A stretch of DNA of 64,000 nucleotides, taken from the NCBI GenBank assembly GCA_035299025.1, contig DATGXK010000019.1:22142-86141 (forward strand), given 5' to 3'. Of this stretch, positions 19,398 through 30,936 are shown one piece after another. The notes beneath the pieces were generated by a model. That model was not told the DNA's origin, made no database searches, and saw only the letters and a program-made list of their open reading frames with translations. The position numbers and the translations under genes were made by a program. Origin of the DNA: Leadbetterella sp. Lineage in GTDB: Bacteria > Bacteroidota > Bacteroidia > Cytophagales > Spirosomataceae. Within the stretch, counting starts at the first letter, position 1. Each line of letters opens with the position of its first letter.

Positions 19398-19426
19398 TAT
19401 TATTATTTCAATAAATTTTGAAAATA

Positions 19427-22400
19427 ATGAACAAAAATCTACTTTCCGGCTTACTATTATTAACTTCAGCCCTTGTTTTTGGGCAAAAAGGATTTGATTC
19501 AAAAAACCAAGCATCCTCGGGCCAACCAATTCTCCAAGCATTCGAAACGATTAGTGCCAAGGGCAAGAATTCTCCCAAAAATCCAAAATTTGCCCTTAGT
19601 CCGAAACAGTCGGCCAAGAAAATATTGAGAGACGATGAAACTGGAGCCGTGGTGTATATCAATAACCCGGTTTATACCAGAGATCTTAAAAACGCACGAA
19701 AAAACAGCTCGGACATGAGCAAGAGTTTCTTGAATTCTGTCAAAAATGAACTTAAAATAAGCAACCCTTCAGATGAGTTTAGACTTGTGGCTGACGAGAC
19801 CGACGACCTTGGCCTGAGGCATTTGAAACTCGAACAAACTTTCAAAAACATACCCATATATGGCGGAGAAGCGGTAGTTCACACCAACAGAGACGGTGTT
19901 GCGGAGTTTTTGATGGGAAAAATATTCCCGAGCCCAAATTTAAATACTACAGCTAATATCAGTCCTACAGCTGCGATAGAATTGAGCTTAAAGGACCTTG
20001 GAAAATCAACTATTGTCCAAAAAACTGGCAAAGTAAATCAGTTTTTAAGTTTGGAGCCTGATATGGCAGAACTCATCATCTTGAATGAAAAAGGTAAAAG
20101 TTACTTGGCCTACCATATCACAGCACGACCAAACTTACTCGAACGCTGGGTGTATTTCATAGACGCTCATTCGGGCGAAGTGATTAACAAATATAACCAT
20201 ACTTGTACGCTAGACGGTGTGGTATCTGCTACAGCCAAGGACTTAAATGGCCTTACAAAAACATTTAATACTGTGCAGGTGGGCCAAAACTACTTTATGA
20301 TTGACGTAACCAAGAACATGTATAATCCCCAATCAAGCCTGCCTGACAGCCCAAAAGGGGTCATTTGGACCATCGATGCACAGAACTCTAGAATTGACCA
20401 AGACAAAATGGACTTGGCCCACGTAACCTCTACCAGCCGAACCAATTGGAATGCTACAGCGGTTTCGGCTCATATAAATGCTTCAATTTGCTACGACTAT
20501 TACCTTTCTAAATTCAACCGAAACTCGCTGAACGGCTCCAAAGGAAATATCATATCGGTTATAAATATAGCCGATGAAGACGGCAAAGGAATGGACAATG
20601 CCTATTGGAACGGCCAATTTATGGGATATGGAAATGGTAAATCGGGCTTTAAACCTTTGGCTGGTGCTCTGGATGTGGCGGGTCATGAAATGACGCATGG
20701 CGTGATAGAAAACACAGCTAAACTTGAATATAGAAACCAGTCAGGTGCCCTAAATGAATCCTTTGCGGACATTTTTGGAGCTCTGATAGATAGAGACGAC
20801 TGGACGCTCGGGGAAGACGTAGTAATCAAGAGTGTTTTTCCTTCAGGAGCCTTACGCTCACTCGAAAACCCAAATCAAGGTGGAAAGAACGACAACGGCT
20901 ACCAGCCAAAAAATATGTCTCAATATCAATTCTTGAAAGATACACCCTCAGAAGACAATGGCGGAGTGCACATCAACAGCGGTATTCCTAATCACGCCTT
21001 TTACAAATTTGCCACAGCCTCTGGCATGACCAAAGACAAAGCTGAAAAGGTGTATTGGAGAGCCATGACTACCTATTTGACACGTACATCAAAATTTGCC
21101 GATCTCCGTGTGGCTGTCATACAGGCGTCGAAGGATTTATATGGCGAAGGCCAAGAAACCACTGCTGCAAAAGGTGCCTTCGACTTCGTGGGAATTACAG
21201 ACGGATCAACTTCAAATGGAAATACTGGAAACACGGGCACTGGAAACACAAGTTCTGACAACACCATACCGGTCAATCCCGGCACGGAATCTTTAGTGGC
21301 ATTTGACCCGACAGATAATAGTCTTTACTCGGGAGCATTTACTGGAAATAGCTTTACAAAAATATCGAATGGATTGGGCTGCTTAGGCAAACCAAGCATT
21401 ACGGACGACGGCAGTTTTGTTTATTTTGTAGGAAAAGACAAACACATTTACAGAGTAGATTTAGCCAAAAACTCTGCTCCACAACAACTTTCCAATGAGC
21501 CTTCCTGGCGAAATGTGGCCATTTCGAAAGACGGAAAACAATTGGCCGCCTTGGCTAGTGTCACAGATACCTACATCTATGTTTTCGATTTGGTAAACAA
21601 TAAAAATAAGCGATTCGAACTCTATAACCCTACCTACACAAAGGGTGTAAGCACCGGTGAGGTACTTTATGCCGATTCTTTTGAATGGGATTATTCTGGC
21701 GAATTTATAGTTTATGATGCATTAAATGAAGCTGAAACAACCTTTAAAAATTTTAAATATTGGGATGTTGGTATTATCAGAATCTGGGATCCGGTAAAAA
21801 AAGATTTCTCAGATGGAGTTATTGAAAAAATGTTTACCAACCTAGAAGAAGGCGACAACATCGGCAACCCGGCATTAGCCAAGACAAATACTGGTATATA
21901 TGCCTTTGATTATTTTGTATCGGATGAAAAAGCTTACTATGTACTTACTTTGGATTTGGGCAAATCGTCCAACAATATTCAGTTAATAGAAGAAAACAAT
22001 GATATTGGTTATCCGAATTTTACCAAAGCAGACAATATGCTCCTTTTCAATTCTAAAGACCAAAACAAACAGGTGATAAAAGGTGTAAATCTAAAAAGTG
22101 ATAAGATTTCGCCAAATGGAACGCCTACGGTACTGTTTACCGATGCCATGTGGGGTGTAACTTATGCGGCAGGAACAAGGGCATTGCCAACCAAAGAAGC
22201 TCAAACTATCACCATCAGCAATATTACTGACAAAGCTCCAAGGGCAAGTTTTGACATAGCTGCCACCTCGAGTTCCAAGCTTGGGCTTATTTTCTCGGTA
22301 GTCTCCGGCGATGCCACAGTTAACGGCAAAACTGTTACCCTAGGAAGTATACCCGGAAAGGTAACCTTGAGAGCCATACAGGTGGGCGACGCCAAGTATG

Positions 22401-22888
22401 CCAGTGCTACGGCCGAAGTGGTCTTTTGTATAGTACCACCCACCCCAAGCTTGTCTGATGCCACCATTGCTGTAACCGCCTCTGGTGGCACTCTCTATCA
22501 GTTTTTTGTAAACAATAATCCGATTGGGGGGCAAACCAGCAACAATACACTCAAAAAGGATTTCGGTGGGGTATATACTGTAAAATCCGTTACTTCTGAC
22601 GGTTGCTTGAGTGCCTCTTCAAATGCTATTTCGGCGGCCGTTTTGGCCACTGAACCTAAAACAGTTCCGAAAATCAACCTAGCTCCTAATCCCATTGAAG
22701 ATCAGATTAATTTGATTTTGCCAGCAGGTGAAACATTAATTGAAATGGAATTGGTGGACAACTTGGGTAAAAGCGTTTTGAGAAGTACCAAAACCAATGA
22801 AAACGTGAAAGGCATCTCGACAGGCCAGTATGTTCTTAAAGTACAAACTGCTCAAAATACATACTCTTTGAAACTCATCAAGAAATAG
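19427..22888 (+). CDS. secreted M4 (thermolysin-like) metalloprotease with beta-propeller-like and Ig-like regions and a T9SS C-terminal sorting domain
   Basis: Signal peptide MNKNLLSGLLLLTSALVFGQ. HEMTH lies at 20684-20698, with GALNESFADIFG downstream (M4 signature). An NGNTGNTGTGNT linker follows, then PD40-like repeats (DGSFVYFVGKDKHIYRVDL, ISKDGKQLAAL). The last ~75 aa (NLAPNPIEDQINLILP...YVLKVQTAQNTYSLKLIKK) look like a type A T9SS CTD. The ATG at 19427 is preferred over the TTG at 19418. Confidence 0.85.
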   Translation: MNKNLLSGLLLLTSALVFGQKGFDSKNQASSGQPILQAFETISAKGKNSPKNPKFALSPKQSAKKILRDDETGAVVYINNPVYTRDLKNARKNSSDMSKSFLNSVKNELKISNPSDEFRLVADETDDLGLRHLKLEQTFKNIPIYGGEAVVHTNRDGVAEFLMGKIFPSPNLNTTANISPTAAIELSLKDLGKSTIVQKTGKVNQFLSLEPDMAELIILNEKGKSYLAYHITARPNLLERWVYFIDAHSGEVINKYNHTCTLDGVVSATAKDLNGLTKTFNTVQVGQNYFMIDVTKNMYNPQSSLPDSPKGVIWTIDAQNSRIDQDKMDLAHVTSTSRTNWNATAVSAHINASICYDYYLSKFNRNSLNGSKGNIISVINIADEDGKGMDNAYWNGQFMGYGNGKSGFKPLAGALDVAGHEMTHGVIENTAKLEYRNQSGALNESFADIFGALIDRDDWTLGEDVVIKSVFPSGALRSLENPNQGGKNDNGYQPKNMSQYQFLKDTPSEDNGGVHINSGIPNHAFYKFATASGMTKDKAEKVYWRAMTTYLTRTSKFADLRVAVIQASKDLYGEGQETTAAKGAFDFVGITDGSTSNGNTGNTGTGNTSSDNTIPVNPGTESLVAFDPTDNSLYSGAFTGNSFTKISNGLGCLGKPSITDDGSFVYFVGKDKHIYRVDLAKNSAPQQLSNEPSWRNVAISKDGKQLAALASVTDTYIYVFDLVNNKNKRFELYNPTYTKGVSTGEVLYADSFEWDYSGEFIVYDALNEAETTFKNFKYWDVGIIRIWDPVKKDFSDGVIEKMFTNLEEGDNIGNPALAKTNTGIYAFDYFVSDEKAYYVLTLDLGKSSNNIQLIEENNDIGYPNFTKADNMLLFNSKDQNKQVIKGVNLKSDKISPNGTPTVLFTDAMWGVTYAAGTRALPTKEAQTITISNITDKAPRASFDIAATSSSKLGLIFSVVSGDATVNGKTVTLGSIPGKVTLRAIQVGDAKYASATAEVVFCIVPPTPSLSDATIAVTASGGTLYQFFVNNNPIGGQTSNNTLKKDFGGVYTVKSVTSDGCLSASSNAISAAVLATEPKTVPKINLAPNPIEDQINLILPAGETLIEMELVDNLGKSVLRSTKTNENVKGISTGQYVLKVQTAQNTYSLKLIKK

Positions 22889-25767: not shown

Positions 25768-25855
25768 AATTTCTAAACAAGGGTTCTGGTTACAATTCTC
25801 AGGCCAGATTATACTTAATAGTAAGAAATCTGGATTTCTACTTTTCAAATAAAAC

Positions 25856-26464
25856 ATGGCTCTATTCAATCTTTCAAAAGAGAAAGAAGTTCTTGAGAAA
25901 ATAAGAAAAAACCAAGATATAAATACCTGTTTGAAGTATTTGTATAAGGAATACTATGGCTTTTTGGAACGTATGGTACTGAACAACAGCGGAAGCACCG
26001 CTGACGCCGAAGATGTCATACAAGAGACTTTTTTAGCCCTTTTGCAGATCATTCAGAACGATAAATTTAAGAGAGAATCGAGTTTGAAATCGTTTCTATA
26101 CGCAGTGGCCCGAAACATTTGGCTGGTTCATTTAAAGAAACAAAATGCCGAGCAGAAAAGGGCAAAAATTTGGTTAGAAGATGCTCCCGATTTTGAGGAC
26201 GACATTCAAGAACAAATAAAGAAAAACGAGGCCTTAGTCCTAATAACAGAGATTTTTGAAAGTCTAGGAAGTGTGTGCAAGCAGATACTGAACAAGTTTT
26301 ATTATGAAGAACTTTCACTCAAAGAAATCTTACCTTTCACAGATTTTGAAAACGAACAAGTGCTAAGAAATAAGAAATCTAAATGCATGAAAACATTGAC
26401 AGATAAACTCAGTCAACAACCCAATTTAAAAGAATCACTCTATAAAGCATTAAAAATAGTTTAG
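25856..26464 (+). CDS. ECF-type RNA polymerase sigma-70 family factor
   Basis: 202 aa. Region 2-like: DAEDVIQETFLALLQ...SLKSFLYAVARNIWLVHLKK. Region 4-like: CKQILNKFYYEELSLKEI...KSKCMKTLTDKL. Confidence 0.8.
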   Translation: MALFNLSKEKEVLEKIRKNQDINTCLKYLYKEYYGFLERMVLNNSGSTADAEDVIQETFLALLQIIQNDKFKRESSLKSFLYAVARNIWLVHLKKQNAEQKRAKIWLEDAPDFEDDIQEQIKKNEALVLITEIFESLGSVCKQILNKFYYEELSLKEILPFTDFENEQVLRNKKSKCMKTLTDKLSQQPNLKESLYKALKIV

Positions 26465-26471
26465 AATCACG

Positions 26472-27200
26472 ATGGAGAAGATAGATGTGTTTGATGATTA
26501 TCTAAAAAATCGGCTCGATGATGACCAAAAACTGGCGTTTGAGAAGGATTTATCGCAGAATGAACTTCTGAAAATGGCCTTCGATAACTACAAAGTGGCC
26601 ATTGAAAGCATAAAATTCCATGGACTCCAGGAAGAAATCAGGAAAGCTCATCGGAGTTATTCAAAAACTTCGAAGAAATCAATTTATGTACCCGTATTTA
26701 GAGCAGCGGCGGTGATGCTTTTTGGCCTTATTTCTGTTGGCACTTTTTGGACCTACAAAACAAACGGTGAAGATTTATTGACCGAATCGGCCATTCAATA
26801 CATAGAACCCAACCATAGAGGGGGTACAGAAGACAGACAAGAAGCCGAAAAACTCTATTTGCGAAAAGAATATGCTTCGGTAATAAAACTTTACAACATG
26901 GCTGTCGAACAAGACGAAAAATTAGTTTTTCTGGTAGCCATGGCCCATTTTAATTTGAATGAATATCAAAAGACACTGGAAATTGCAGACAAAGCATCGC
27001 CCACAGGTCCACATGCGAACGAATATTCTTTTTACAAATGCCAAAGCTTGATAGGCTTAAAAAAATACGACGAGGCACTCATGGCAATAGAGGAAATGGA
27101 GGAAAATAGTCCATACAAAGAAGTATTTAGCTGGGAATATAGAACAAAACTTAAGCTTTTGGCTTTAAAAGAGCGTTTTTTTGAAGTAAAAACCAAATAA
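26472..27200 (+). CDS. single-pass membrane TPR protein, putative anti-sigma factor
   Basis: 242 aa, starting 7 nt after the sigma gene. It has a cytoplasmic N-terminal ~70 aa, one TM segment (VFRAAAVMLFGLISVGTFW) and a TPR-like C-terminal half. The anti-sigma role is inferred from position and topology only. Confidence 0.55.
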   Translation: MEKIDVFDDYLKNRLDDDQKLAFEKDLSQNELLKMAFDNYKVAIESIKFHGLQEEIRKAHRSYSKTSKKSIYVPVFRAAAVMLFGLISVGTFWTYKTNGEDLLTESAIQYIEPNHRGGTEDRQEAEKLYLRKEYASVIKLYNMAVEQDEKLVFLVAMAHFNLNEYQKTLEIADKASPTGPHANEYSFYKCQSLIGLKKYDEALMAIEEMEENSPYKEVFSWEYRTKLKLLALKERFFEVKTK

Positions 27201-29844
27201 ACAAAGCCAAGAAAAGCGAACCAAGAGCGGCATTCAATCCATTGCTCGCCCATTTGTTTTTTTTCTGGTGACCGACAAAAACAAGATGCGACCAGTATTT
27301 GGGATCTCGAAACTGGACCATTTGTCTATCTTCCAATAAATCGAGTTTGGCCTCACGAAGTGCCTCAGGATAGTCCTGACCGTCACCCACATGCTTATAA
27401 AACCTTCTGGTCAAGTAGGCCGTGGCATAGTCTTCGGCTTTCCACAATGAAGAGATAATACACTGGCTACCAGCCAAATAAAAACCCCTTGACAAACCTC
27501 TGATTCCTTCGCCCTTCAAATTGAAGTTCCCATAAGAGTCGCAAGCCGATAGAAACACCAATTGCGTATTTTTGAGCATACCAGCCGAGAATTCGAACAA
27601 ATACAACTTGTCATTTTTCTGGTTATCGTTGGCAAAGCGTATGAAAGACTTTTCAGGAAACTGCCCGTAGGCTACTGCATGGGTAGCCAAATGCAAAATT
27701 GGGTAGCTAGCTGCTAAGCTCATGAAATTTGATTTAGTGGCACTCTTTCCAAAGAAAGGCCTAGCAGAACTTATATTGGCTATTTCATCTTTCGAATTTG
27801 GCAAATAATCTTTCCCAGAAAAAATCTCCGAAAAAGGAGCAAAAGCCAGAACCTTCCTGGTACTTTCAAACTCCTTGCTGCTCAGTACAAACTTGGACGA
27901 AAACAAATAAGAGATAGTATGACTCTGGAGCAAATAGGCACCGTCTGTGTCTTTCAAAACCTCCATAGGCAGTCCGTTGGCCTCGGCATCTCCAACAAAA
28001 ACAACTTTAGGCTTATCTTTCAAAAGCACATTAAAAGGCTTAAAAATAGAACTATACACCACTTTTAGCGAATTATGAGCTACTTTTTGTGACACATTGC
28101 TCTTGACTTTGCGAAGGTGGTGATTCAAATTTGCAACGTTTGTTATTAATCTGAACTTAAAATCAGACGAACTGACTCCAAAGACCACTGCCGACCTGCC
28201 CATATCAAAATAACTTATAACCAATTCTTCAGCCGACAAATTATCTTGCAAGGCTCTCAAAGTAAATCTCTGGTTTTCAAACAGTTTCTTGGCCTTAAAT
28301 TTTGGATATTTTTCTAGCTTTTGGTTGAGTTTATCTAGCTTAATCTCCGTCTCGTTTATGGCTTGAAGATACTTTTTTGTAAGATCAGTGTCCGAACTGT
28401 TCTGTAAGTTTCGTCTAAGAGCCGCCAAGGCTATTTGTAAATTTTGCTCGTTCTGAAGTAACTCCGCAGGAATGTCGGTAGTATTTTTTAATTGATTTTC
28501 ATTAATCGCCAACGACAACACCAAAGCCTTGCTACCCTCGCTTACCTCAAATGCTTGCTTTATATAGTCATGATTTTGGGTACCCGAAAACCCCTCCACC
28601 AAAAGCCTAACAAACGACTGATAAACAGGCTGAATGCGGGCCAGCAAATCTAGCCTAGCATTTTCTTGTGTATAATTTTTAGAGAGTGTATTGGCCAACA
28701 TTTCGTATGCTTCAAACGCTCTCATTGCACCCCTTAAATAGCGAACATCCTTTGTTTTTCGGTATAATTTCTCAAATTGCCCAACTTTTTCTGCTAAGAT
28801 ATTCAGTAAAAAAAAAGAGGAAAAACTGCCATCAACCTTCACCGGATTGTGGAATATATTTTTTGAATAAAAAAGAGAATCGAGATAACCCAAGGCAACC
28901 TGATAATAGTAGAGTGCTCGGTAGGGCTTGTTATTTTCAGCCGCAATTTTTCCCAAGAAATAGTATGCAAAACCCTTGTCAGCCAAATTTCCCTTTTGGA
29001 GGTGAATAGTTTTTTCAAAATTCACTTTGGACTTACCCAAATCACCAAGCTTCAGATATACTTTGCCGAGGGCATTGTAATAAACTGCTGAATCCCCAAC
29101 CAGATTTTTCAAATAAATCAACGCCTCCAGAGGCTTGTTAAGCTCTGTGAGGACCGAAGCCAAGTTTATTTTGAGTTGTTCTTCATTCGGAAATCGACTT
29201 TCAAGACTTTTCAACAATCGCAGGGTGCTATCGCGTTGATTTAAAAATTGAAGAGCCAAAGCCTGATTATTTCGGTTGGTGAATTCATCAGTTCCTATTT
29301 GCTGCTCGGCCTTTTTGAAATAAACCAAACTTTGCCGAAAATTGCCTGCCTCAAAAAGCAATACCCCTTTAGTATTGAACAAGCGTTCCGCCTCACCTAG
29401 TTTCGGATATTTTTCAATGATTTGCTCGGCCTTTTCTAGAAAAAAAAGACATGAATCATACACAGACTCATAATAATAAAGCCCACTGAGATATAGATTA
29501 GACCGAAACGACAGCGTGTCTACCAAACCGTGCATTTCAGAAACCTTTAGACTACTTTTATAATACTTTTTGGCTTTGGCCAAATCTCCAAGGCCCTGAA
29601 GCAAAACACCAAGCTTTTCGTTTGCAGACCCCACCCATACTGCTTCAGTTTTATTTTGGGGTTTATGCTTAGCTATTTTCTCAAAAGATTTTATAGCCTG
29701 ATTATCGGTATACTCTGTAGGATTTTCGAGATTAAAATAGCTCAAACCACGTTCATATTCTTTCGCAAGACTGGCTGGCCCAGGCTGTGATACTGCCAAA
29801 CCTACCAGAAAAATACTTAGTATGGAGAGAAGTTTTAATTTCAT
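27151..29844 (-). CDS. exported TPR repeat + CHAT domain (caspase-like clan CD) protease with C-terminal TM anchor
   Basis: 897 aa. It has a signal peptide (MKLKLLSILSIFLVGLAVSQ), then about 500 aa of TPR-like repeats and a CHAT domain. The catalytic-type His lies in LHLATHAV (codon 27679-27681) and the Cys in VFLSACDS (codon 27541-27543). A terminal hydrophobic helix LNAALGSLFLALFIWFLL closes the protein. Confidence 0.85.
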   Translation of the reverse strand: MKLKLLSILSIFLVGLAVSQPGPASLAKEYERGLSYFNLENPTEYTDNQAIKSFEKIAKHKPQNKTEAVWVGSANEKLGVLLQGLGDLAKAKKYYKSSLKVSEMHGLVDTLSFRSNLYLSGLYYYESVYDSCLFFLEKAEQIIEKYPKLGEAERLFNTKGVLLFEAGNFRQSLVYFKKAEQQIGTDEFTNRNNQALALQFLNQRDSTLRLLKSLESRFPNEEQLKINLASVLTELNKPLEALIYLKNLVGDSAVYYNALGKVYLKLGDLGKSKVNFEKTIHLQKGNLADKGFAYYFLGKIAAENNKPYRALYYYQVALGYLDSLFYSKNIFHNPVKVDGSFSSFFLLNILAEKVGQFEKLYRKTKDVRYLRGAMRAFEAYEMLANTLSKNYTQENARLDLLARIQPVYQSFVRLLVEGFSGTQNHDYIKQAFEVSEGSKALVLSLAINENQLKNTTDIPAELLQNEQNLQIALAALRRNLQNSSDTDLTKKYLQAINETEIKLDKLNQKLEKYPKFKAKKLFENQRFTLRALQDNLSAEELVISYFDMGRSAVVFGVSSSDFKFRLITNVANLNHHLRKVKSNVSQKVAHNSLKVVYSSIFKPFNVLLKDKPKVVFVGDAEANGLPMEVLKDTDGAYLLQSHTISYLFSSKFVLSSKEFESTRKVLAFAPFSEIFSGKDYLPNSKDEIANISSARPFFGKSATKSNFMSLAASYPILHLATHAVAYGQFPEKSFIRFANDNQKNDKLYLFEFSAGMLKNTQLVFLSACDSYGNFNLKGEGIRGLSRGFYLAGSQCIISSLWKAEDYATAYLTRRFYKHVGDGQDYPEALREAKLDLLEDRQMVQFRDPKYWSHLVFVGHQKKNKWASNGLNAALGSLFLALFIWFLLQKNALLKPKA

Positions 29845-29852
29845 ACTCGAAA

Positions 29853-30794
29853 TTAATAATTTCTGCCTACTATTACGATTTGCGGTGGACGTGGTTTTCT
29901 GAATAATCTAAAAATACGGGCGTATTTCAATCCGAAATTAGGATTATAATAAGAATTCTGGTTCTCAAATATTTTGTCTTTTAGACTCTTGGGCACATCA
30001 CTTTCTTTTTCAAAATAATGAAATTCAAGTTCTATTCTGTTGAGTGCCTTTCCGCTTTTGTCGTCTAGTCTATAAAAAAGCTTTAGCTTTTTGGTAGAAC
30101 CGCTCTTAGGGCTTGTTCCCAACAAACCTTTTCGTAACGAATTATCCAACAGTATTTTTCCGTCAACTTTTGAAATATCCAAACCTTGGGCTATCACCTG
30201 CTGGCCCGGTAGTGGCTCATCCAAAGTACCATTCCCGTTGTCGTCGTCATCGTCGTCGTCAAACTCGGAAGTGCGGGTATTTACACCAGGTATTGCCAAA
30301 TTTGGGTTGTTGTTGTAGATGGGCACCGCCAATTTCTCATTTTTATCTAAAAGATAAATTTTGCTCATGTAGTCTACACCCGAAATTGTTAGGTGTGTAA
30401 AACAAGTGTCTCTGGTATTTTTGGGAACAAAAAAGACAGTGTATCTCAGGCCTGATTCACTTTTGGTAACATTTATTTCTCCGTGTGATTCATTTATTTC
30501 TAAGCCTTCTGGAAAGGCTCCATACGCACCATCACGCTTCACTAGTGGCTTTATTTTTAGGTCGTCTTTTAGGTTTTCTAGAAAAAAAAGCGTGTCGCTG
30601 TAAGCTATGAGATTACATGTTTTTATGCTTGTAGCTCCCGACCCACTTTGTGTAACACTCTGACCTGTAGTGCTTTGCGTATTGGCACCAAGATTATCAT
30701 CATCAGGCTTTACGTCGTCATCCGAAGAATTGGGGTTACATCCCAGTATCCAAGAAGCAAAAAATATAGCGAGTAAAAAAATGAGTTTTTTCAT
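29853..30794 (-). CDS. hypothetical lipoprotein with poly-Asp tract
   Basis: The ATG at 30794 gives MKKLIFLLAIFFASWILGC (lipobox). It has a Ser/Thr/Asp-rich linker and a run of seven Asp (30240-30260). It ends 8 nt upstream of the CHAT gene start. I recognised no family. Confidence 0.6.
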   Translation of the reverse strand: MKKLIFLLAIFFASWILGCNPNSSDDDVKPDDDNLGANTQSTTGQSVTQSGSGATSIKTCNLIAYSDTLFFLENLKDDLKIKPLVKRDGAYGAFPEGLEINESHGEINVTKSESGLRYTVFFVPKNTRDTCFTHLTISGVDYMSKIYLLDKNEKLAVPIYNNNPNLAIPGVNTRTSEFDDDDDDDNGNGTLDEPLPGQQVIAQGLDISKVDGKILLDNSLRKGLLGTSPKSGSTKKLKLFYRLDDKSGKALNRIELEFHYFEKESDVPKSLKDKIFENQNSYYNPNFGLKYARIFRLFRKPRPPQIVIVGRNY

Positions 30795-30936
30795 CAAAAA
30801 ATTTGGCACTGTTACATACTCTTACGGTTGTAAAGAAACGATGGTTGCAAAAAATATGTATTCATGTAGTTACATTTTTTAAGTCGGTCTATACTTAGAA
30901 GAGAAAATCAATTATCACCGTAAAATTATTAAAATC

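Follow-up and report, generated by a model that had tools for sequence, protein, structure and literature searches.

A CRISPR-free module of Bacteroidota linking a TPR-CHAT caspase-like protein and a lipoprotein to an ECF sigma factor, probably a split-gene relative of Myxococcus DdvA/DdvS

A sigma factor gene pair converges on a lipoprotein-CHAT operon in Leadbetterella

We analysed a 64,000-nt chromosomal stretch (the window, whose numbering is used for all positions not preceded by a locus number) on contig DATGXK010000019.1, from a metagenome-assembled genome of Leadbetterella sp. In the window, the genes for a sigma factor of the extracytoplasmic function (ECF) type and for a putative anti-sigma factor converge on a two-gene operon encoding a lipoprotein and an exported protein with tetratricopeptide repeats (TPR) and a caspase-like CHAT domain, and a gene for a PepSY-like lipoprotein is divergent from that operon (Table 1). 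These genes recur together across Bacteroidota, and we propose that they are probably a split-gene, CRISPR-free relative of the DdvA/DdvS system of Myxococcus.

The arrangement is compact. Seven nucleotides separate the sigma and anti-sigma genes, eight separate the lipoprotein and CHAT genes, and the convergent coding 3' ends of the anti-sigma and CHAT genes overlap by exactly 50 bp. Public annotation labels the four non-sigma proteins separately ("CDC27 family protein", "hypothetical protein", "CHAT domain-containing protein" and "PepSY-like domain-containing protein") and does not treat the module as a system.

Table 1. Coordinates of the module in the window and of associated genes in related loci
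Feature	Position	Strand	Basis
ECF (group IV) sigma-70 factor, 202 aa	25856..26464	+	Pfam, NCBIfam, orthologues
Putative single-pass transmembrane anti-sigma factor, 242 aa	26472..27200	+	position, topology, TPR/ANAPC3
Exported TPR-CHAT caspase-like protein, 897 aa	27151..29844	-	Pfam CHAT, AlphaFold2, Foldseek
Partner lipoprotein, 313 aa	29853..30794	-	lipobox, alignment, AlphaFold2
PepSY-like lipoprotein, 171 aa	30937..31452	+	Pfam PepSY_like, conserved position
Sigma-type promoter GGTTAC-N16-TATACTTA	25788..25817	+	39 nt before sigma start codon
ECF-like promoter element (TTTTTT)GCAAC-N17-CGTA	30823..30848	-	before lipoprotein-CHAT operon
Sigma-type promoter AGTTAC-N16-TATACTTA	30868..30897	+	39 nt before PepSY-like gene
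Arg116 codon, motif Y-x5-R-G, candidate cleavage site of anti-sigma linker	26817..26819	+	invariance among 24 homologues
DUF4382 lipoprotein genes (related loci)	L006 10782-11516, L008 10575-11411, L011 3491-4327, L012 2536-3420, L020 10799-11533	-	
Inserted Cytophagales genes (related loci)	L001 6153-8974, L002 3803-6616, L003 11772-12839	-	

The sigma factor and its putative anti-sigma factor

The first protein of the pair matches Pfam Sigma70_r2 (E 9e-12) and scores 69.8 bits against the NCBIfam model TIGR02937 (sigma70-ECF; cut-off 42.9). With no regions other than sigma-2 and sigma-4, and a score above the cut-off of this curated ECF model, it belongs to the ECF sigma factors. For a named ECF subgroup, every specific NCBIfam subfamily scored below its cut-off, for example Sig70_bacteroi1 (63.5 versus 126.4) and sigma_PG0214 (54.7 versus 130). 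Region 4 is divergent, yet strongly conserved between orthologues, which are 31–80% identical. Its Cys141 and Cys177 do not vary among 18 orthologues, nor does the motif YENEQVLRNKKxKC.

The second protein contains a single hydrophobic helix (residues 71–93, nt 26682–26750) with the basic stretch RKAHRSYSKTSKKS just before it, and one hydrophobic helix at the equivalent position scored above threshold in 16 of the 17 orthologues examined. Its predicted layout consists of a cytoplasmic N-terminal domain (residues 1–70), the transmembrane (TM) helix and a periplasmic TPR domain (residues ~120–240). The TPR-like character of the C-terminal half is seen in an ANAPC3 match (E 3e-8) and in a family profile that matches TPR structures, with TPR or ANAPC3 matches in 22/24 family members. 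The protein thus has the traits of a class I anti-sigma factor: a gene directly after that of the sigma factor, one TM helix and a predicted N-in orientation.

Profile searches returned no family match for the N-terminal domain of the window protein. An alignment of 24 homologues gives the N-terminal consensus YLDGELxxxEKxxFE, which we take to be a pattern typical of N-terminal anti-sigma domains. There is no Cys in residues 1–70 of the window protein, and the domain therefore cannot be a CHCC zinc site. Across the 24 homologues, which are 17–48% identical and include proteins from Flavobacteriia and Saprospiraceae, Arg116 is the sole invariant residue besides Met1 and two alanines of the TM helix. 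It lies in a Y-x5-R-G motif ~22 residues past the membrane, immediately ahead of the TPR domain, which makes Arg116-Gly117 a candidate cleavage site. The protein family itself, currently labelled "CDC27 family protein", would be an unannotated anti-sigma family.

An exported TPR-CHAT protein with an invariant His-Cys dyad

The large protein of the minus-strand operon, which has a public counterpart of 100% identity labelled "CHAT domain-containing protein", matches the CHAT family PF12770 at residues 595–858 (E 1e-46, 159.9 bits against a cut-off of 24) and has Pfam TPR matches at residues 76–318. Its TPR superhelix spans residues ~26–520 and its CHAT domain residues ~540–860. Both residues of the catalytic-type dyad, His722 (CAT, 27679–27681) and Cys768 (TGC, 27541–27543), are invariant in 20 homologues. 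In the AlphaFold2 (AF2) model (predicted local distance difference test, pLDDT, 86; predicted template modelling score, pTM, 0.83) the TPR superhelix appears packed on the CHAT fold, similar to solved members of the family. The best Foldseek match of this model was Csx29/TPR-CHAT (8eey_B, E 2.4e-14), alongside separase (9hn0 and 7nj1, E ~3e-13) and DdvA (E 5e-12). These three were recovered by structure-based search only; a PDB sequence search with the CHAT domain alone gave nothing useful, and in the search with the full-length profile designed TPR proteins crowded out other matches.

The protein starts with a signal peptide (residues 1–19, MKLKLLSILSIFLVGLAVS/Q) and ends in a hydrophobic helix (residues 869–887, nt 27184–27240) followed by a basic tail. 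The C-terminal segment lies above the hydropathy threshold in 17/19 orthologues and can be seen by eye in the other two, and the combination of signal peptide, C-terminal hydrophobic segment and basic tail recurs across CHAT orthologues. Because of the signal peptide, the C-terminal TM helix and the basic tail (positive-inside rule), the TPR-CHAT body is predicted to be periplasmic and tethered to the inner membrane, where it would share a compartment with the TPR domain of the putative anti-sigma factor. Within the CHAT coding sequence, a 21-bp unit is repeated 2.1 times (28300–28341), probably by chance.

The partner lipoprotein

The lipoprotein has the lipobox ILG/C. Translation probably begins at Met6 (30794), which yields the 313 residues of the public record. 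No Pfam or NCBIfam family was matched, and it belongs to a family of 182 clusters at 50% identity (E <= 1e-30), which emerges here as a new lipoprotein family. The AF2 model (pLDDT 77) shows a disordered tether (residues 19–58) and two immunoglobulin (Ig)-like beta-sandwich domains with an acidic loop between them; Foldseek returned weak Ig-like matches only (Sap S-layer domains, LigA Big domains, a SusE-like protein and cadherin EC1-2). Two stretches are near-invariant in the family alignment, the acidic motif EFDDxxDDDNGNGxxDEPPxG (its part EFDDxxDDDNGNGxxDEP at nt 30213–30266), to which a run of seven Asp belongs, and the C-terminal motif KPRPPxIVxVGR. A regular-expression count had found long Asp/Glu runs in Cytophagales only, suggesting that the poly-Asp run is not conserved; this was rejected once the alignment showed the near-invariant EFDDxxDDDNGNG. 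Giant proteins of 1,400–5,600 aa (P0166, P0168, P0178, P0197 and others) also carry the first Ig-like domain, repeated in tandem as many as 48 times; it is therefore an adhesin-type repeat domain without a Pfam family.

These features allow a reading in which the lipoprotein is the substrate of the CHAT protein, or a securin-like pseudosubstrate inhibitor of it, and the TPR domain of the anti-sigma factor detects its cleavage or release, being regulated by binding and not cut. We consider this unlikely. It would account for genes that are always adjacent (8 nt apart or overlapping), for a lipoprotein that has diverged less than the protease (identity to the Lacihabitans homologues 80% and 54%, respectively), and for a near-invariant acidic motif whose adjacent loop (residues 187–190) has a pLDDT < 50, given that caspases cut after Asp. 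The KPRPPxIVxVGR peptide could serve as a TPR ligand, and the disordered tether of 40 residues could cross the periplasm. However, the acidic loop is also like the Ca-binding linkers of cadherin-like Ig tandems, as a weak Foldseek match suggests, which would explain its conservation without cleavage, and binding between lipoprotein and anti-sigma factor is hypothetical.

The module is kept together across Bacteroidota

Linkage was examined from both sides. On the CHAT side, a CHAT alignment searched against one genome per GTDB species gave 80 loci, the open reading frames (ORFs) of which were then searched with the window proteins. Distant full-length orthologues, with CHAT proteins 27–34% identical, account for 19/80 loci and span Cytophagales, Chitinophagales and Sphingobacteriales (Arcicella, Spirosomataceae, Cyclobacteriaceae, Algoriphagus, Lunatimonas, Parafilimonas, Ilyomonas, Ginsengibacter, Ferruginibacter, Chitinophaga and Mucilaginibacter). 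A lipoprotein homologue lies directly upstream of the CHAT gene in 18/19 of them, locus L012 starting at the CHAT gene. Downstream, 17/19 have a convergent anti-sigma/sigma pair orthologous to that of the window (sigma E 1e-39 to 1e-53); the two exceptions are a short contig and the Ferruginibacter locus L015. Closer relatives add five further loci (CHAT 41–54% identical), including that of Lacihabitans sp. LS3-19. Together with the window, 6/6 carry the same five genes in the order PepSY-like (divergent), lipoprotein-CHAT, convergent anti-sigma/sigma, in unrelated flanks, with 3' overlaps of 18–35 bp in the five relatives (18–50 bp counting the window).

On the sigma side, metagenome contigs were scanned with the sigma alignment, counting as orthologues those with E <= 1e-36 plus the truncated L096. 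Wherever the contig of a sigma orthologue runs past the anti-sigma gene, a convergent CHAT gene follows (5/5), as against 1/19 generic ECF loci of >= 9 kb with a CHAT gene (Fisher p = 1.4e-4). More broadly, an ECF sigma gene lies <= 8 kb away in 30 of the 42 CHAT loci that have >= 5 kb on both sides. This linkage depends on the type of CHAT protein: it is found for 38/58 with a C-terminal TM helix and for 5/22 without (p = 9e-4).

The Flavobacteriia (Mariniflexile, Aquimarina, Flavobacterium, Ascidiimonas) carry a rearranged module, in which a homologous sigma/anti-sigma pair is divergent from an operon for a lipoprotein, a secreted protein of 650 aa, a CHAT protein with a C-terminal anchor and a 145-aa protein with a DTG motif. 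The 145-aa gene overlaps the CHAT gene or lies within a base of it (L047 9586–10029, L055 9609–10046 and L056 9557–9994, plus strand). Its DTGAS motif resembles that of retropepsin-type aspartyl proteases, and the product would be a second protease coupled to CHAT.

That the linkage is kept in different gene orders argues that the association is functional and not positional alone, and the genes very probably form one functional module. That they are chance neighbours, or that the CHAT protein is a non-catalytic scaffold, appears extremely improbable, with linkage retained in several gene orders, across Bacteroidota orders and from both search directions, and with an invariant His-Cys dyad.

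A preliminary description of this locus had set out the ORFs, gaps, motifs, dyad codons and 3' overlap, and all of these were correct on re-checking; the four ORFs of the sigma factor, putative anti-sigma factor, TPR-CHAT protein and lipoprotein were recovered at its coordinates. Its account of an exported CHAT protein with intact His and Cys was verified for the signal peptide, the dyad codons and the C-terminal TM helix. Profile searches matched the CHAT, sigma and TPR families that it had named, and anti-sigma families only weakly. Its placement of the CHAT domain and the anti-sigma C-terminal domain in one compartment holds as a prediction (N-in/C-out for the anti-sigma factor, signal peptide and anchor for CHAT), and the linkage that it expected between CHAT homologues and sigma/anti-sigma pairs is borne out in 17/19 distant loci, in 6/6 close loci and in 5/5 loci from the sigma side. 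Its interpretation is thus supported in part: parts, linkage and predicted topology agree with it, and the site-1 cut that it suggested stands as a hypothesis.

Sigma-type promoters and accessory genes

The upstream regions of orthologous sigma genes share a bipartite motif, GGTTAC-N19-AC, 10–40 nt ahead of the start codon, with GGTTACA as the -35 part and TCGAC, TTTAC or TATAC as the -10 part. The regular expression used for training finds it before the sigma gene in 13 of the 17 distant loci that have one, and a position weight matrix (PWM), trained solely on sigma-upstream sites, adds L003 and L016. In the window, GGTTAC-N19-AC has a single match, the sigma-upstream site, and RRTTAC-N16-YATACTTA has two matches in 64 kb, the two sigma-type promoters of Table 1, against 0.00 expected. 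Throughout the window's clade, RRTTAC-N16-YATACTWA precedes the sigma gene (6/6) and the PepSY-like gene (6/6). The promoter before the window's sigma gene is probably autoregulatory.

Scanning 741 kb with the PWM gave 44 matches of >= 12 bits, nearly all in cluster promoters. A match of >= 10 bits precedes lipoprotein-CHAT in 11/18 loci, compared with <= 2.6% of random 300-nt windows (p ~ 1e-13), and matches also precede genes inserted between CHAT and anti-sigma, often that of a DUF4382/CarboxypepD_reg lipoprotein. Since the motif stands before the protease operon in most lineages, this operon is there a predicted transcriptional target of the linked sigma factor, and output or feedback roles of the protease are at least as well supported as an input role. 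As a by-product, the analysis provides a promoter motif for an uncharacterised Bacteroidota ECF group. A sigma-type promoter before the lipoprotein gene of the window itself was considered and rejected, the best PWM score being 0.6 bits and a hand-picked GATTTT-N19-AC unconvincing.

These promoters lend themselves to an alternative in which the protease is output only. The lipoprotein-CHAT, PepSY-like and DUF4382 genes would then be the local sigma regulon, a conventional site-1 protease would cut an anti-sigma factor that senses through its own TPR domain, and CHAT would be an induced periplasmic protease that remodels the envelope, controls protein quality, or acts against foreign proteins in attack or defence. 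ECF sigma factors often control neighbouring genes, and here the same motif stands before the sigma gene and lipoprotein-CHAT in 11–14/18 distant loci, as well as before inserted genes. In the Flavobacteriia a conserved ECF-type GGGTAACAA-N16-GATATAA element is directed from the sigma gene to the CHAT operon, and L015 retains sigma-type motifs around its lipoprotein-CHAT and PepSY-like genes though its sigma pair is encoded elsewhere. We nevertheless rate an output-only role as rather unlikely: it leaves unexplained both the inner-membrane anchor of sigma-linked CHAT proteins and the fusion of anti-sigma factor and TPR-CHAT in DdvA, and the sigma-type motif is absent before lipoprotein-CHAT in the window's clade. 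An output role is, moreover, compatible with an input role, the two not being mutually exclusive.

The PepSY-like protein (Pfam PepSY_like, E 1e-20; lipobox LTS/C) is encoded at the same position in 6/6 clade members despite differing flanks, and is predicted to be a regulon member and the fifth module gene in the window's clade; the Ferruginibacter homologue in L015 is likewise preceded by a sigma-type motif. PepSY-type domains act as peptidase inhibitors in other contexts, and for this reason the PepSY-like lipoprotein could be a feedback inhibitor. Its gene was rejected as a universal module member, being present in some clades only.

Other accessory genes are found outside the window locus. 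Many relatives, unlike the window, carry after the anti-sigma gene a gene for a DUF4382 (+CarboxypepD_reg) lipoprotein with its own sigma-type promoter. Some Cytophagales have genes between CHAT and anti-sigma that encode a ~360-aa protein (MKxRIKKSFxC…) and a 562–566-aa protein, unassigned to a family, that starts with a hydrophobic segment. In both L001 and L002 the ~360-aa gene is preceded by a sigma-type motif, as is another inserted gene of L002, and these genes may be extra regulon members.

A proposed site-1 protease mechanism

We tentatively favour a mechanism, giving it somewhat less than an even chance, in which CHAT acts as the site-1 protease on the anti-sigma linker, a site-2 protease is encoded elsewhere, and the sigma factor then transcribes genes of the module with feedback. 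At rest, the anti-sigma factor would keep the sigma factor at the membrane. A signal, presumably from the envelope and sensed by the lipoprotein and/or the TPR arrays, would activate the CHAT protease, the lipoprotein perhaps serving as a sensor or an inhibitor. CHAT would then cut the anti-sigma factor in its periplasmic juxtamembrane linker, with Arg116-Gly117 as the candidate site, and the site-2 protease would release the sigma factor. Free sigma factor would act on its own operon and on the PepSY-like gene through the RRTTAC-N16-YATACTTA promoters and, in most other clades, on the lipoprotein-CHAT operon and the DUF4382 lipoprotein gene as well, closing a feedback loop.

We prefer this mechanism because, by analogy, DdvA fuses an anti-sigma domain, a TM helix and a periplasmic TPR-CHAT; because CHAT and the anti-sigma factor share a predicted compartment and the dyad is invariant; because the membrane anchor is retained specifically in sigma-linked CHAT proteins; and because Arg116 is the single invariant periplasmic residue of the anti-sigma factor.

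Several observations weigh against it. The lipoprotein-CHAT operon of the window's clade is preceded by a different element, TTTTTTGCAAC-N17-CGTA, at the same place in 5/6 loci plus one variant. This GCAAC-N17-CGTA element, with 2 matches in the window against 0.23 expected, resembles classic ECF promoters. Where a sigma-type promoter does precede lipoprotein-CHAT, it would fit a simple output-gene role equally well, and in L015 lipoprotein-CHAT occurs without an adjacent sigma pair. The second protein is assigned as an anti-sigma factor from its position, its topology and weak family matches; among 24 homologues, these were to zf-HC2 in 6/24 (best 4e-4) and to RseA_N in 1/24 (2e-4). The invariant Arg116 could be structural, and there is no site-2 protease gene among the window genes. 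The substrate specificity of CHAT is not readable from sequence, and cleavage preference differs among CHAT-type enzymes, Csx29 cutting after Met or Leu and separase after Arg (PMC11506125). In DdvA, on which the analogy draws, CHAT activity was neither triggered nor detected, and dyad mutants had no phenotype under the tested conditions (PMC11506125).

The site-1 protease mechanism can be extended to an envelope-spanning "periplasmic caspase" cascade, widespread in Bacteroidota, and independent of CRISPR, in which an outer-membrane lipoprotein on a long tether would control an inner-membrane-anchored TPR-CHAT. This would be the dedicated site-1 protease of the TPR anti-sigma factor, would cut at the invariant juxtamembrane Arg-Gly and would thereby switch on the ECF sigma factor; in this full form we hold it to be less likely than not.

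Relation to known CHAT and sigma factor systems

Three links between CHAT and ECF sigma factors are known, all tied to phage defence. In type III-E CRISPR systems Csx29 cuts Csx30 (PMC10028731), a type III-B SAVED-CHAT cascade forms another link (bioRxiv 10.1101/2023.06.23.546230), and the third, DdvA/DdvS, is alone in being periplasmic. DdvA of M. xanthus is an anti-sigma factor that crosses the membrane once, and its periplasmic domain consists of a TPR-CHAT in which the His-Cys dyad is at rest (PMC11506125, PMC6061681). Its authors propose a signal-induced trans-autoproteolysis of the juxtamembrane linker, followed by RseP, and truncated DdvA is degraded RseP-dependently (PMC11506125).

The window module resembles DdvA/DdvS in its ECF sigma factor and single-pass anti-sigma factor, and in a separase/craspase-type TPR-CHAT with a His-Cys dyad that faces the periplasm, is tethered to the inner membrane (as predicted for the window) and is encoded beside the cognate ECF sigma factor. 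In both, the protease needs no CRISPR effector, and in the proposed sequence of events CHAT makes the site-1 cut within the juxtamembrane linker before a site-2 protease acts. Unlike DdvA, which is one polypeptide, the window and all 25+ related loci have two separate convergent genes; the window protease has its own signal peptide and C-terminal anchor, and the window anti-sigma factor has a small TPR domain of its own and lacks the CHCC zinc site. The module also differs from DdvA/DdvS in its obligatory lipoprotein with two Ig domains, in its PepSY-like or DUF4382 accessories and in having no nearby defence island. DdvA-like fusions are reported only from Myxococcota and one Comamonas (PMC11506125), whereas the window module belongs to Bacteroidota. 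Because both the fusion and the zinc site were looked for and found lacking, the locus falls outside the DdvA family; it plausibly works in the manner of DdvA.

DdvA/DdvS controls a CBASS-CRISPR island, where CBASS denotes the cyclic-oligonucleotide-based anti-phage signalling system; only a subset of DdvA-like pairs adjoins defence genes (PMC11506125). A biological role of the same kind can be imagined here, with the CHAT/TPR part recognising a protein of a phage or predator as it enters the periplasm and the sigma factor driving distant defence genes. CHAT proteases do recur in defence systems, and this reading is about what the module is for, and it is compatible with the others. We nevertheless judge it very unlikely. 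PADLOC found no defence family in the window, its sole match being a weak one to the CHAT-domain protein BovA (E 1e-4); the flanks of the module hold no defence genes in any of the six close loci, the window included; and the promoter matches are confined to the module, within the 64 kb of the genome that were scanned.

Craspase (gRAMP/Cas7-11 with Csx29 and Csx30/Csx31/RpoE; PMC10028731, PMC9729208) shares with the window a TPR-CHAT with genetic ties to an ECF-type sigma factor and to a partner that binds the sigma factor, and Csx29 is the best structural match of the window TPR-CHAT model. Craspase is cytoplasmic, RNA-guided and docked on Cas7-11, whereas the window protease is predicted to be exported and membrane-anchored and has no cas gene or array beside it; the sigma-binding partner is a putative transmembrane TPR protein in the window and Csx30 in Craspase. 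With no Cas effector and with an exported protease, the locus is not a type III-E Craspase, and its wiring is closer to DdvA than to Craspase.

Canonical regulated intramembrane proteolysis (RIP) of ECF anti-sigma factors is carried out in E. coli by RseA/DegS/RseP with RseB, and in B. subtilis by RsiW/PrsW/RasP. The window shares with these systems a single-pass anti-sigma factor, an inner-membrane-anchored periplasmic protease, periplasmic or lipoprotein modulators and an autoregulated sigma operon. It differs in that the candidate site-1 protease is a clan CD CHAT protein with a TPR array of ~500 residues, not a serine or metalloprotease, and in that there is no PDZ-type sensor. With separase-securin, the window shares an architecture of helical repeats and a caspase-like domain, and a co-inherited partner that could be an inhibitor or pseudosubstrate; separase-securin is, in contrast, eukaryotic, cytoplasmic or nuclear and far larger, and the Ig-like lipoprotein of the window is unrelated to securin.

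The comparison with type III-E made in the preliminary description was legitimate, CHAT-to-ECF wiring being documented there (PMC10028731). Its statement that no characterised system of this type was known is superseded by DdvA/DdvS (PMC11506125), a precedent that makes the wiring of the window a variant of a known design and not unprecedented. It had also treated the protease as an input only, a picture that is incomplete now that a sigma-type promoter is seen before the lipoprotein-CHAT operon in most distant loci, and it had left out the PepSY-like gene, which the same motif precedes in the window's clade.

We found no description of the split, Bacteroidota version in the literature, although ECF group descriptions may already list a CHAT neighbour. 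Searches combining CHAT with Bacteroidetes and periplasmic, or for DUF4382, returned no relevant literature, and the main text of the 2021 ECF re-classification (Casas-Pastor et al. 2021), as distinct from its supplementary group descriptions, does not mention CHAT.

The module thus presents the logic of DdvA in separate genes in Cytophagales, Chitinophagales and Sphingobacteriales, and rearranged in Flavobacteriia. With protease, substrate candidate and sensor candidate on separate polypeptides, trans-cleavage becomes directly testable, and carriers such as Algoriphagus, Chitinophaga, Mucilaginibacter and Flavobacterium are tractable. Widespread, unannotated and experimentally more tractable than the fused DdvA, the module could settle whether a periplasmic CHAT acts as a site-1 protease, a point left by DdvA. 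If the periplasmic cascade set out above is real, its CHAT would give RIP a first site-1 protease of clan CD (caspase-like) that acts in trans, and the fused Myxococcus DdvA would be a special case within a broader design.

Surroundings of the module in the window

A scan of 26 large ORFs in the window showed housekeeping genes, among them those for GlmS, AspRS, BamA, HtpG, S41 and M61 peptidases and a two-component pair. The 64 kb gave neither a CRISPR-like tandem array nor an Rfam match; the tandem-array, Rfam and ORF scans agree with the earlier statement that it holds no cas gene or CRISPR array. A thermolysin-like M4 metalloprotease of 1156 aa, which carries an FTP propeptide and, at its C-terminus, a sorting domain for type IX secretion, is encoded ~3 kb from the module (19418–22888, plus strand), an adjacency that is not kept in relatives.

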